From the sequence record PQ438393.1: a stretch of DNA of 64,000 nt, one strand, 5' to 3'. Positions 36,436 through 39,891 of this stretch are shown here, one piece after another. The translations under genes and the position numbers were made by a program. The stretch is from Escherichia phage vB_Eco_J-01. Under the pieces are notes generated by a model, which saw only the letters and a program-made list of their open reading frames with translations, was not told the origin of the DNA and did no database searches. Positions within the stretch are counted from its first letter, which is position 1, and every line of letters begins with the position of its first letter.

Positions 36436-36633
36436 ATGATGCTAGATCAACTGATCAATGCTCCTCGCGTAACAGTAAGTCCAAAAACATTTGCATCACT
36501 TTTAGAAGATGCTAGAGAGGTTTATAACTTTACTGAAGAAGAGCTTCCTGTTCCTGTTGAAAAAGGTTCCAGATGGTTGTTTTATGAAGGTATTATTTTT
36601 ACTGAAGGGAATAATTGGAAGGAGACTAAATGA
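36436..36633 (+). CDS. hypothetical protein
   Basis: track ORF trimmed to ATG after AAGGAGG. Confidence 0.4.
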   Translation: MMLDQLINAPRVTVSPKTFASLLEDAREVYNFTEEELPVPVEKGSRWLFYEGIIFTEGNNWKETK

Positions 36634-37619
36634 AATACTTAGTAACAGGTGGTTTAGGCTTTATTGGAAGTGCGGTAGTTCGTTTCCTAGCTAAAAATAC
36701 TAAGAATGATATTTACGTTATAGATAAATGGGGTTACGCTTCAGACCCTAGGAATTTATCAGAAACACCTAATGTAAAGTTTTGTCGTGTTGACTTGACA
36801 AATGCGCAGTTAACTGCTAAGATTGTGACAGATGTTAACCCAGATTATATAATGCATCTTGCAGCAGAAAGTCACGTAGATAATTCAATAGCATCACCGA
36901 GTGTTTTTATAAATTCAAATATTGTTGGAACATTTAATCTTCTAGAAGCTGTTCGTTTAATGGGAGATAAATCAAATCTTAAAATGTTTCATCATATTTC
37001 AACAGATGAAGTGTATGGTGATATGGAAGAAGGGGATTATCCGTTTACAGAACAGAATCCTTATAAACCAAGTAGTCCATATGCTGCATCTAAAGCTGCA
37101 AGCGATCATTTGGTAAGAGCGTGGCATCGTACTTATGGTATTCCGACAGTTATAACAAATTGTTCAAATAATTTTGGAGCGTATCATCATCCAGAAAAAC
37201 TAATACCTAAAACGATAACAAATATCTTGATGCATAAACCAATCCCTGTTTATGGCAATGGTCTTCAAGTAAGAGACTGGTTATACGTTGACGATCACGC
37301 AGAAGCATTACACCTAGTAGTAACTAAAGGCAAATCTGGAGAAACATATAATATTGGGAGCAGAAACCCTAGAACTAATATTGATGTAATCTATATGATT
37401 TGTGATTATATGGATGCGGTATATCCATCTGAAACAGATGCTTGTAGCCTCATTGAGATGGTTACAGATAGGCCTGGGCATGATTTAAGATATGAAGTCA
37501 ATCCTTATAAGATTGAAAAGGAATTAGGGTGGAAAGCTAAAGGCACATTTGAAGAAAAACTTTATTCAACCATTGATTGGTATGTAGATAACAAAGAGTG
37601 GTGGGAAAATAAAGTTTAA
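36630..37619 (+). CDS. rmlB: dTDP-glucose 4,6-dehydratase
   Basis: N-terminal Rossmann [13 protein letters not shown] and SDR catalytic YAASKAASD. Confidence 0.85.
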
Positions 37620-37627
37620 GGAGGAGT

Positions 37628-38497
37628 ATGAAAGGTATTATCTTAGCAGGTGGTAGTGGAACAAGACTTTACCCAGTTACTAAAGGGGTTAGTAAACAAC
37701 TATTACCAATTTACGATAAACCTATGATTTATTATCCACTCTCTGTCCTAATGCTTTCTGGAATTAGGGAAATACTAATAATTACAACACCAGAAGATCA
37801 AATTAATTTTGTAAATCTTCTAGGTGATGGTTCTTCTTTTGGTATTTCCCTACAGTATGCAATACAGGATAGCCCAAAAGGTTTAGCAGAAGCGTTTATT
37901 ATTGGTGAGAACTTTATTGGTGAAGATTCTGTAGCACTTGTGCTAGGTGATAATTTATTCTTTGGTCAGAGTTTTGGTAGCATTTTAGATTCTGCTAAAG
38001 AACATATTGAAAAGAATGGTGGAGCTAATATTTTTGGGTATCACGTAAATGATCCTGAAAGATTTGGTGTTGTTGAGTTTGATTCTGAAGGTACAGTGGT
38101 AAGTATTGAAGAAAAACCAAAAGCACCAAAAAGCAATTATGCAATTACAGGCTTGTACTTTTACGATAATTCTGTTATACAGAAAGCTAAAAGCGTTAAG
38201 CCTTCTGCTAGAGGGGAGTTAGAGATCACAGATATAAATGAGATGTACTGGAAAGAAAAGGCTTTACGTGTCTGTAAGCTAGGAAGAGGTTTCACTTGGC
38301 TGGATACAGGAACACATGAAAGTCTTATGGAAGCATCTCAATTTGTTCATGCAATAGAAAAGCAACAAGGTATGAAGGTTGCATGCCTAGAAGAGATTGC
38401 TTTTAAAAATGAATGGATTACTTTAGACTCTGTAAAAAGTTCTGGAGAGGTTTTAAGTAAAACAGACTACGGTAAGTATTTACTTAAATTAAAATAA
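37628..38497 (+). CDS. rmlA: glucose-1-phosphate thymidylyltransferase
   Basis: [18 protein letters not shown] nucleotidyltransferase signature. Confidence 0.85.
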
Positions 38498-38509
38498 AGG
38501 GGGAATTAA

Positions 38510-39064
38510 ATGATTCAAGCAACAAAAATCGAAGATTTGTTGATCATTCAACCTGACGTTTACGGAGATGAACGTGGCTTTTTCTTAGAAAGTTTTAATC
38601 AGGCTTTATATGATCAATACATAGGTAAACAAAACTTTGTCCAGGATAACCACTCACGTTCTATTCGAGGAGTTCTACGTGGGCTTCATTTTCAAAAGAA
38701 AAACCCACAAGGGAAGCTAGTACGTTGTGTTCGTGGTGAAGTTTATGATGTTGCTGTAGATATTAGGGCTGGTAGTCCAACATTTGGAGAATGGGTAGGT
38801 GTTCTTTTATCTGAAAAGAATAAAACACAATTTTGGATTCCTCCTGGTTTCGCTCATGGCTTTGTTGTGATTAGCGACATTGCTGATTTTGAATATAAAT
38901 GTACAGAATATTACGATCCGACTTCAGAGTGTAGTCTTGCGTGGAATGATCCAGATATCAATATAGATTGGGGTTTTGATTTAATCTTTAATGATATTAA
39001 TTTTAAACCTATCTTGTCACAAAAAGATCAGGAAGCCAAAACACTAAAGGAGATCATATTTTGA
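38510..39064 (+). CDS. rmlC: dTDP-4-dehydrorhamnose 3,5-epimerase
   Basis: 184-aa cupin-like protein with RmlC-type segments (RGLHFQ, GFAHGF). Confidence 0.8.
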   Translation: MIQATKIEDLLIIQPDVYGDERGFFLESFNQALYDQYIGKQNFVQDNHSRSIRGVLRGLHFQKKNPQGKLVRCVRGEVYDVAVDIRAGSPTFGEWVGVLLSEKNKTQFWIPPGFAHGFVVISDIADFEYKCTEYYDPTSECSLAWNDPDINIDWGFDLIFNDINFKPILSQKDQEAKTLKEIIF

Positions 39065-39891
39065 CAAAATTTTTAGTCTTTGGTTCAAAAGGTCAATTAG
39101 GACAGTCTTTGGCAAAAGTTGCGCCCGAAGATGTTGTTTTGATTGAAGCAAGTGATATAGACATTACCAACTTTAAAGATGTTATGAATAGTCTTGTACA
39201 GCACGTGCCTGATGTTGTTGTGAATTGTGCGGCTTACACGGCAGTAGATAAAGCTGAAGAAGATGTTAACACCTGTATAAATGTTAATGCATACGGTGCA
39301 ACAAACATTGCCAAAGCATGTAATGATTTACTGATACAGTTTGTACATATTTCAACAGACTATGTTTTTGATGGACATGTTGCTGGCACAGAAGAGAGTA
39401 AAACAAACCCCTTGAACACCTACGGTTACAGTAAACAATTAGGTGAAACTTTAGTACAAGCAGTTTGTCCTACAGCACTTATTATCAGAACAGCTTCTGT
39501 TTATAGTGAATTTGGACATAACTTTTTGAAAACTATGTTGGAACGCTACAACGGTGGTCAAAAAGAATTTAATGTAGTATGTGATCATTTATCATGTCCT
39601 ACTTATGCACCTGATCTTGCAGAAACAATTTTTAAACTTGTAAAAGATGGTGTAAATAGTAAAATTGTACACTATGCAGGTGCAGATTATATTTCTTGGT
39701 ATGATTTTGCACGAAAGATATTTCTTGTTATAGATTTGTCTGTTACAGTTAATCCTGTATCTGCTTCAACCTATAATTCCAAAGCAGTCAGACCAGCAAC
39801 ATCTTATTTAAAAACAGATCCTACTTTAAATCCGCGAAGTGTTGATAGCGGTATTGTAAGAACTTTAACTATACTTTTAAACAAGGAGTGA
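39061..39891 (+). CDS. rmlD: dTDP-4-dehydrorhamnose reductase
   Basis: 276 aa, Rossmann-like N-terminus LVFGSKGQLG; completes the rmlBACD order; TTG start. Confidence 0.75.
   Translation: MTKFLVFGSKGQLGQSLAKVAPEDVVLIEASDIDITNFKDVMNSLVQHVPDVVVNCAAYTAVDKAEEDVNTCINVNAYGATNIAKACNDLLIQFVHISTDYVFDGHVAGTEESKTNPLNTYGYSKQLGETLVQAVCPTALIIRTASVYSEFGHNFLKTMLERYNGGQKEFNVVCDHLSCPTYAPDLAETIFKLVKDGVNSKIVHYAGADYISWYDFARKIFLVIDLSVTVNPVSASTYNSKAVRPATSYLKTDPTLNPRSVDSGIVRTLTILLNKE

Follow-up and report, generated by a model that had tools for sequence, protein, structure and literature searches.

In a 64,000-nucleotide stretch of the genome of Escherichia phage vB_Eco_J-01 (PQ438393.1; referred to here as the window), we confirmed that positions 36630 to 39891 carry the complete and intact genes of the deoxythymidine diphosphate (dTDP)-L-rhamnose pathway, rmlB-rmlA-rmlC-rmlD, in a lytic phage. 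The model that best accounts for this cassette, to which we assign a probability of roughly 0.55, is that it would provide dTDP-L-rhamnose, independently of the host, to glycosyltransferases (GTs) of the phage's own that act on a target other than DNA. RmlB, RmlA, RmlC, and RmlD would convert glucose-1-phosphate and dTTP (deoxythymidine triphosphate) to dTDP-L-rhamnose in the infected cell, their genes being expressed within a long codirectional early or middle metabolic block that extends from nrdAB to the glutaredoxin gene (grx), and the selected role would be to guarantee dTDP-L-rhamnose in any host. GTs encoded beside the primase/helicase, outside the window, would then consume the sugar, assembling a glycan with rhamnose on some acceptor other than DNA. 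The leading candidate for this acceptor would be virion protein, by analogy with capsid glycosylation in mycobacteriophages, and a glycan of the host envelope would come second.

Identity of the pathway genes and their prior description

We used the curated equivalog cut-offs of NCBIfam as the criterion for the identity of the four enzymes. Each protein exceeded its cut-off: RmlB scored 442.2 bits against TIGR01181 (cut-off, 365.1), RmlA 472.6 bits against TIGR01207 (cut-off, 360.65), RmlC 260.5 bits against TIGR01221 (cut-off, 155.75), and RmlD 254.2 bits against TIGR01214 (cut-off, 224.05). Pfam assignments were concordant, and the equivalog E values of the four proteins (1e-75 to 4e-142) exclude chance matches. 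Catalytic motifs are conserved as well. RmlB aligns with Salmonella RmlB (1g1a; 57% identity) at its GxxGxxG motif, its Thr-Asp-Glu (TDE) triad, and its YxxxK motif (YAASK), and RmlA aligns with Salmonella RmlA (1iim; 66% identity) at GGSGTRL, EEKP, and LDTGT. RmlC shares 62% identity with its Salmonella counterpart 1dzr, whose His63, Lys73, and Tyr133 align with the LRGLHFQ His, the GKLVRC Lys, and the EYK Tyr of the phage enzyme. RmlD retains GSKGQLG (GxxGxxG), STDYVF, and YGYSK (YxxxK); against the enterobacterial-specific model PRK09987 it scores 139 bits, below the threshold of 308. A preliminary description of this DNA, made from its letters alone, had placed the same four genes at the same coordinates and had pointed to the YxxxK and GGSGTRL motifs; this assignment stands. 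Pseudogenization, which that description had raised as grounds for abandoning its interpretation, was rejected: none of the four open reading frames (ORFs) contains an internal stop, and the cassette is under purifying selection, as described below.

The four enzymes very probably make dTDP-L-rhamnose. RmlD is the most divergent of them, and a divergent RmlD-like reductase with the opposite stereochemistry at C4 would instead yield dTDP-6-deoxy-L-talose or another 6-deoxyhexose. Consistent with this idea, RmlD clears its cut-off by just 30 bits and shares 39% identity with the closest protein of solved structure and at most 46% with cellular homologs. It nevertheless remains above the curated equivalog threshold with its catalytic Thr, Tyr, and Lys motifs intact, and every named RmlD homolog is annotated as a dTDP-4-dehydrorhamnose reductase. 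We therefore consider a different end product quite improbable.

The window maps onto positions 9548 to 1 and 146666 to 91613 of phage EmilieFrey, a correspondence that places its source in Justusliebigvirus (phi92-like phages) of the Stephanstirmvirinae. Over the cassette region, its DNA is 99.1% identical to that of Escherichia phage vB_vPM_PD06. Identity is 98.5 to 98.9% to some 50 further records besides phi92, EmilieFrey, muut, and outra, and exactly the four rml functions are annotated in the majority of these GenBank entries. The published equivalents are phi92 gp64-67 and phAPEC8 gp100-103, and the feature in the window is identical to the one that Olsen et al. (2020, Viruses 12:986; PMC7552041) described in phi92-like phages and Phapecoctavirus, for which they proposed a role in DNA glycosylation. 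The cassette and the idea of DNA modification, treated as new in the preliminary description, are thus already in print and annotated. What we add is the link to a GT cluster, a series of reduced cassettes, an analysis of selection, and the collated evidence against DNA modification. We found no report of an experimental test of cassette function in the literature searched.

Several matching records are labeled as phages of other hosts. Cassette DNA is 98.8% identical in "Campylobacter phage" A150, A145, C3, and A110a (MG065639, MG065645, MG065656, and MG065689), OK210077 ("Serratia phage KKP_3264") is ~99% identical to the cassette at the protein level, and OR584014 ("Pseudomonas phage PsgM04F") is Phapecoctavirus-like. 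These labels may reflect contamination, mislabeling, or a broad host range.

Reduction, ancestry, and selection of the cassette

Relatives of this phage carry shortened forms of the cassette at the same locus. Klebsiella phage KP13-26 encodes rmlC and rmlD alone (9984-11392), and an IMG/VR contig, 3300030441_000047, carries rmlA-C-D without rmlB (L013, 4560-6837). By the identity of NrdB, RmlC, and RmlD, the two belong to one lineage, and we found no remnants of lost rmlB or rmlA in either locus. Among Klebsiella phage records, RmlC has 8 matches and RmlA at most 2. These comparisons suggest that the Klebsiella-phage lineage reduced its cassette from rmlBACD to rmlACD to rmlCD and never lost rmlC or rmlD, so that rmlB and rmlA would be dispensable, and rmlC and rmlD indispensable, in that lineage. 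No description of this series was found in the literature searched.

All Enterobacterales make dTDP-4-keto-6-deoxy-D-glucose via RffH and RffG, for the synthesis of enterobacterial common antigen (ECA), while RmlC and RmlD are limited to strains with rhamnose-containing glycans. In keeping with this, homologs of the first two pathway steps are present in 5,426 of 5,426 complete E. coli genomes. Since the host supplies the intermediate and only some strains provide RmlC and RmlD, what selection maintains is the formation of the end product, dTDP-L-rhamnose, or, on the alternative reading, the removal of the 4-keto intermediate.

The reduced cassettes also bear on whether the pathway manages nucleotide pools, in which case it would drain or regulate dTTP, dTDP-glucose, or glucose-1-phosphate instead of supplying a sugar donor. 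The cassette lies within a thymidylate module (thymidine kinase, NT5C-like, ThyX-like, NrdAB, and glutaredoxin), and the rml genes of the unrelated Sphingomonas phage PAU are also found near a thymidylate-synthase-like gene. Feedback inhibition of RmlA by dTDP-L-rhamnose likewise speaks for such a role, because accumulated product could inhibit RmlA and spare the host a waste of dTTP. However, phage RmlA itself uses up dTTP, which would be counterproductive for a replicating AT-rich phage, and four conserved GT genes of the same distribution would be left unexplained. The draining of dTDP-glucose pools, one of the roles offered in the preliminary description, is disfavored because relatives with rmlCD only or rmlACD cannot drain dTDP-glucose alone. 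We regard pool management as the least probable of the explanations considered, with very little chance of being correct.

Across the subfamily, the locus has kept its frame. The order thyX-nrdA-x-nrdB-small ORFs-rmlB-A-C-D-grx-x-lysozyme-phoH is identical in Phapecoctavirus phAPEC8, Citrobacter phage Tr1, Klebsiella phage 05F01, and 17 IMG/VR loci, and the upstream nrdA-small ORF-nrdB frame is kept in all Stephanstirmvirinae-like loci examined. These phages span considerable distances: 05F01 is deep-branching, with RmlC at 50% identity, and RmlD is 43 to 99% identical across the 17 IMG/VR loci. The shared synteny argues that the four-gene cassette is ancestral to the Stephanstirmvirinae, an old and vertically inherited core feature. 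Between genera, the proportion of non-synonymous differences (pN) in the rml genes is 0.15 to 0.31 against a saturated proportion of synonymous differences (pS) of 0.66 to 0.83, and within the genus there are 34 synonymous versus 12 non-synonymous codon differences. Both comparisons indicate that the cassette is under purifying selection.

Recent capture from a host was considered and rejected, given ~65% DNA identity to any E. coli, a different gene order, and a phage-like G+C content at third codon positions (GC3). All 5,426 of the 5,426 complete E. coli genomes match the cassette at only ~65 to 66% DNA identity and never over rmlD, which has no DNA similarity to E. coli rfbD, and the GC3 of the cassette (0.20 to 0.24) equals that of neighboring phage genes. 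On phage contigs of ~150 kb, the relatives of RmlD make up an unbroken clade in which identity declines from 99 to 50%, and the nearest cellular relatives of RmlD (Flavobacterium, Bacteroidales, and others) are at most 46% identical. Compared with bacterial RmlABCD (RfbABCD) of Salmonella and E. coli O-antigen clusters, the cassette encodes the same four families with the same catalytic residues, but it resides in a lytic phage, follows the order B-A-C-D instead of the E. coli order B-D-A-C (rfbB-D-A-C), includes an RmlD of non-enterobacterial affinity, and lies between nrdB and grx without an adjacent rhamnosyltransferase, Wzx, or Wzy.

Scanning IMG/VR with a single RmlD sequence returned near-identical contigs only, and a profile was used for distant loci. 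Large uncultured phage contigs, many of them 200 to 390 kb in size, commonly encode RmlD-like reductases (154 stretches, 80 of them retained), whose genes often stand alone or occur in other orders, such as C-B-D-A, A-C-D-B, and B-D-A.

Phage glycosyltransferases and candidate acceptors

As the preliminary description had noted, the window contains no GT. The search of the rest of the genome that it recommended was positive in the relative EmilieFrey, in which four contiguous GT genes are located at 44552-47728 on the minus strand, outside the window, adjoining the primase/helicase and DNA polymerase genes. All four are annotated as putative glycosyltransferases or disaccharide synthases. GT1 and GT2 are GT-B paralogs (phrog_7162) with weak Glyco_trans_1 matches, GT3 (phrog_2456) carries FDDD and YGxED motifs that are invariant in its family, and GT4 (phrog_14179, 187 amino acids) is classed as a glycosyltransferase by PHROGs only. 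Among 50,697 phage records, RmlC, GT1, and GT3 have near-identical distributions (~105 to 106 Escherichia, 8 to 10 Klebsiella, 5 "Campylobacter," 3 Justusliebigvirus, and 3 Phapecoctavirus records), and in KP13-26, the GT set is reduced and rearranged as well. We think the odds somewhat favor consumption of the sugar by the phage GTs. In two of the IMG/VR loci with distant RmlD homologs (L059 and L063), a GT1/GT2-family gene is found ~2 kb upstream of rmlC-rmlD.

We next consider what the GTs might modify. The AlphaFold model of GT3 (predicted local distance difference test score [pLDDT], 88) has a minimal GT-A fold with a DxD motif, and its best PDB neighbors are STIV A197, WrtF, vaccinia H3, and the Listeria wall teichoic acid rhamnosyltransferase RmlT, all with template modeling (TM) scores of ≤0.5. 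The GT1 model (pLDDT, 93.6) has a GT4-like GT-B fold, with BshA, MshA, PglA, GtfC/Gtf3, SdgB, TarM, and the T4 β-glucosyltransferase (BGT) as neighbors at TM scores of 0.55 to 0.65. The acceptors of these neighbors include small molecules, lipid-linked substrates, teichoic acids, proteins, and DNA; the fold therefore does not identify the acceptor. The best BFVD matches of the GT models, among them A0A345BQA1, J3IZ65, and A0A249XSC9, are unnamed proteins, and NCBIfam and PDB sequence and profile searches yielded nothing useful on the specificity of GT1 to GT4.

Outside its own clade, GT3 matched only 66 Mycobacterium phage records among the 50,697, mostly GTs of Cluster F phages, at 25 to 27% identity over 70 to 88% of its length (E values, 1e-6 to 1e-8). 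PMC11256854, which summarizes Freeman et al. (2023), describes the Cluster F phages Che8 and Rita as carrying glycans on their major capsid proteins; in such phages, phage-encoded GTs act on phage structural proteins. The likeness of GT3 to Cluster F GTs may serve as a lead, not as proof, and these homologs are candidates for the genes that glycosylate Che8. By this analogy, we tentatively propose virion protein as the specific acceptor.

Mimivirus combines its own UDP (uridine diphosphate)-L-rhamnose synthesis with glycosyltransferases for the host-independent glycosylation of its fibrils, using a eukaryote-type, two-enzyme UDP-rhamnose route, whereas the cassette described here encodes the four-enzyme bacterial dTDP route and belongs to a virus of another realm and host. 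T-even phages draw on the UDP-glucose of the host and lack genes for a donor pathway. For Cluster F mycobacteriophages, we know of no nucleotide-sugar pathway.

Several points weigh against a dTDP-L-rhamnose supply for phage GTs acting on a non-DNA target. As far as sequence and predicted fold can tell, the GTs give no indication of donor or acceptor specificity. The rml and GT genes share their distribution in what is essentially a single clade, so that this pattern could be due to common ancestry and does not count as independent co-occurrence. The similarity of GT3 to mycobacteriophage GTs is weak, as the identity and E values above indicate. In the literature searched, we found no experiment tying the GTs to dTDP-rhamnose or to any acceptor and no report of a glycosylated virion protein in phi92-like phages, phi92 virion proteomics lying outside that search. 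The remaining points against this model concern DNA: the GT cluster stands beside replication genes and the rml cassette among nucleotide-metabolism genes, GT3 has weak matches to TAGT (PF20691; 23.3 bits, E value of 6.8e-5) and to the T-even hydroxymethylcytosine (HMC) glucosyltransferase PHROG (phrog_842; E value of 5e-5 over just 41 residues), and T4 BGT is a structural neighbor of GT1 (TM score, 0.63).

These same observations favor DNA hypermodification, in which rhamnose would be placed on a modified base to evade restriction, as is glucose in T-even phages and arabinose in RB69; this is the role proposed by Olsen et al. (PMC7552041) and also raised in the preliminary description. The window further encodes a C5-cytosine DNA methyltransferase (48967-49956, plus strand; 149 bits), which could in principle begin a route from 5-methylcytosine through 5-hydroxymethylcytosine to a glycosylated base. 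Like T-even phages with glucosyl-HMC and RB69 with arabinosyl-HMC, the phage is a lytic E. coli myovirus with GT and sugar genes near nucleotide metabolism. However, the GT3-TAGT match lies under the gathering score (27.5) and ends at the DxD motif, spanning no more than a generic N-terminal part. T4 BGT stands among many GT-B neighbors of GT1 at the same distance. In contrast to the T-even and RB69 systems, no dCMP hydroxymethylase or other enzyme making a hydroxymethylated base was found here. Pfam scans of window ORFs around the C5-cytosine methyltransferase and the nucleotide block detected no ThyA-type hydroxymethylase (PF00303), TET/JBP protein (PF12851), or 2-oxoglutarate oxygenase, and the same acceptor-making families were absent from 40 larger uncharacterized EmilieFrey proteins (among the best 25 of 30 families; the rest had E values of >0.006). 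The sole thymidylate-synthase-like protein found is of the ThyX type.

The behavior of related phages toward host defenses also differs from that of T-even phages. Maffei et al. (2021) found three phi92-like phages to be "exceptionally susceptible" to restriction-modification (RM) in vivo "despite a putative dTDP glycosylation machinery" (PMC8594841). Picton et al. (2021) reported that the Durham phages Pau and PATM are sensitive to BREX by ~7 logs; neither belongs to the set of 13 phages that were restricted by BrxU, a type IV enzyme of the GmrSD kind that cleaves DNA with modified cytosine (PMC8565348). By their names alone, Pau and PATM are probably the Justusliebigvirus phages "Escherichia phage Paula" and "vB_Eco_PATM." A 2026 paper on DNA modification in the Durham collection covers T-even-like phages only, without Paula or PATM, and no report of rhamnosylated phage DNA was found in the literature searched. 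Because of the RM and BREX phenotypes, the lack of a detected acceptor-making enzyme, and the ThyX-type synthase, dense DNA glycosylation is unlikely, while sparse, site-specific modification is conceivable. Overall, the acceptor is likely not DNA, and we judge hypermodification to be an unlikely role for the cassette.

In the unrelated jumbo phage PAU, rmlB-rmlC-rmlA (3356-8437, with no recognizable rmlD nearby) lies three genes downstream of a weak, partial match to the ThyA family (44 bits). Because this family includes dNMP hydroxymethylases, a link between DNA and sugar is more plausible in the PAU lineage.

Somewhat more probable than DNA modification, though still well short of the favored model, is manipulation of the host envelope. 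The GTs may rhamnosylate precursors of the lipopolysaccharide core, O-antigen, ECA, or capsule, in which case rhamnose would block superinfection or the adsorption of progeny to debris. Alternatively, RmlC and RmlD may divert dTDP-4-keto-6-deoxyglucose from dTDP-Fuc4NAc and so halt ECA synthesis. ECA (wecB) is reported to be the primary receptor on which every Vequintavirinae and phi92-like phage tested depends (PMC8594841), and RmlC and RmlD, the minimal set retained in KP13-26, are precisely the enzymes needed to divert its precursor. The structural neighbors PglA, PimA, and TarM of GT1, which act on lipid-linked or teichoic acid acceptors, and RmlT of GT3 are also compatible with an envelope target. 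On the other side, phage RmlA and RmlB add to the same intermediate that this role requires to be depleted, the annotation includes no flippase and no GtrA/GtrB-type or membrane-embedded transferase, surface glycans already in place would presumably outlast a short lytic cycle, and no experimental report of such a role was found in the literature searched. An envelope glycan as acceptor, or diversion of the ECA precursor as the role, is accordingly a minority possibility, behind virion protein.

Gene neighborhood and wider significance

The cassette and its neighbors are listed in Table 1. Glutaredoxin and lysozyme genes follow it, as the preliminary description had stated, but the rml genes do not lie immediately after the ribonucleotide reductase genes: a run of small ORFs, ~1 kb long, comes between nrdB and rmlB.

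Table 1. Features of the rml locus in the window
Feature	Coordinates	Strand	Remarks
Thymidine kinase	28955-29518	+	Pfam TK, 185 bits
NT5C-like	29388-30092	+	Pfam NT5C, 22.5 bits (weak)
ThyX-like	30102-31073	+	Pfam Thy1, 36.9 bits (weak)
nrdA	31854-34115	+	
Small ORF between nrdA and nrdB	34115-34492	+	125 aa; no Pfam match
nrdB	34479-35564	+	
Small-ORF run, nrdB to rmlB	35564-36633	+	No Pfam match; last ORF overlaps rmlB start
rmlB, dTDP-glucose 4,6-dehydratase	36630-37619	+	329 aa; ATG start
rmlA, glucose-1-phosphate thymidylyltransferase	37628-38497	+	289 aa; ATG start
rmlC, dTDP-4-dehydrorhamnose 3,5-epimerase	38510-39064	+	184 aa; ATG start
rmlD, dTDP-4-dehydrorhamnose reductase	39061-39891	+	276 aa; TTG start over rmlC stop
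Glutaredoxin	39894-40154	+	PF00462, 45 bits; likely start ATG 39894
Lysozyme	40315-40815	+	
PhoH	40854-41606		

Each rml gene has its own Shine-Dalgarno sequence (AAGGAG for rmlB and AAGGAGG for rmlA), and that of the glutaredoxin gene, AAGGAG, lies 5 nucleotides ahead of its ATG; the leader of this gene also contains the rmlD stop codon. The genes are closely spaced or overlap, with ATGA at 36630 joining the rmlB start to the stop of the upstream ORF and TTGA at 39061-39064 joining rmlC and rmlD, and no terminator-like hairpin was found on the plus strand from ~34140 to 40818. On these grounds, we read the four rml genes as part of a longer, putatively polycistronic block that runs from nrdA to at least the lysozyme gene. 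A promoter scan was uninformative (50 sites versus 57.9 expected from shuffled sequences). Counterparts of the small-ORF run stand upstream of the cassette in relatives, directly before rmlC in KP13-26, and the glutaredoxin gene occupies the same downstream position in phAPEC8, Tr1, KP13-26, and 05F01.

Other features of this region are recorded here in their own right. The small ORF between nrdA and nrdB is lineage-specific and is kept at this position throughout the Stephanstirmvirinae; a GC-rich hairpin (GGGGGC...GTCCCC, 34124-34139) occurs at its start, directly past the nrdA stop. The ThyX-like protein, annotated as thymidylate synthase, has the signature THRLFSRNAASSRA compared with the canonical RHR..S....S.R; its pattern, THR..S....SSR with THR instead of RHR, may be that of a normal ThyX or may indicate altered chemistry.

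Elsewhere in the window, the minus strand encodes an NAPRTase/NAMPT-family protein (13883-15616) and a phosphoribosyl pyrophosphate synthetase-like protein (15688-16581), and the plus strand encodes a Sir2-family protein (51285-52097); macro-domain, NADAR, and ComF-like phosphoribosyltransferase proteins are encoded elsewhere in the genome of the relative. This gene set, related to nicotinamide adenine dinucleotide (NAD), suggests NAD salvage or the countering of NAD-depleting defenses. The window also contains a cluster of 16 tRNA genes (10391-13136, minus strand), including three tRNA-Met(cat) calls, compared with 14 tRNAs annotated in the corresponding part of EmilieFrey, as well as a proteasome/HslV-like protein (42134-42787, plus strand; weak PF00227 match) and a serine-recombinase (resolvase) gene in this otherwise lytic phage (44261-44923, plus strand). 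Among the 40 EmilieFrey proteins scanned in batch, there were matches to TerC, TelA, and vWA-TerF-like proteins (tellurite-resistance type), CapR, and RdgC; their placement at 50001-100000 is a guess.

Annotations of the rml cassette exist for more than 100 phage genomes, and publications have dealt with it since 2020. Phi92-like phages, which carry it, are common in sewage and in therapeutic cocktails and have among the broadest host ranges of coliphages. That a pathway and several GTs appear to be kept under purifying selection across a whole subfamily makes the question of their function matter, and the rmlCD-retaining series and the codistributed GT cluster turn this question into a concrete test. 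One tentative answer is that the Stephanstirmvirinae possess a self-sufficient glycosylation system, in which their own dTDP-L-rhamnose and three or four GTs would place a rhamnose glycan on virion proteins. If true, such a virion "glycan shield" would have no forerunner among phages of Gram-negative bacteria, nor would any earlier case be known in which the phage brings the whole donor pathway. The glycan could help phi92-like phages to reach their unusually wide range of hosts and to persist in the environment, and glycosylated virions would have a bearing on antibody neutralization, immunogenicity, and the pharmacology of therapeutic phages.

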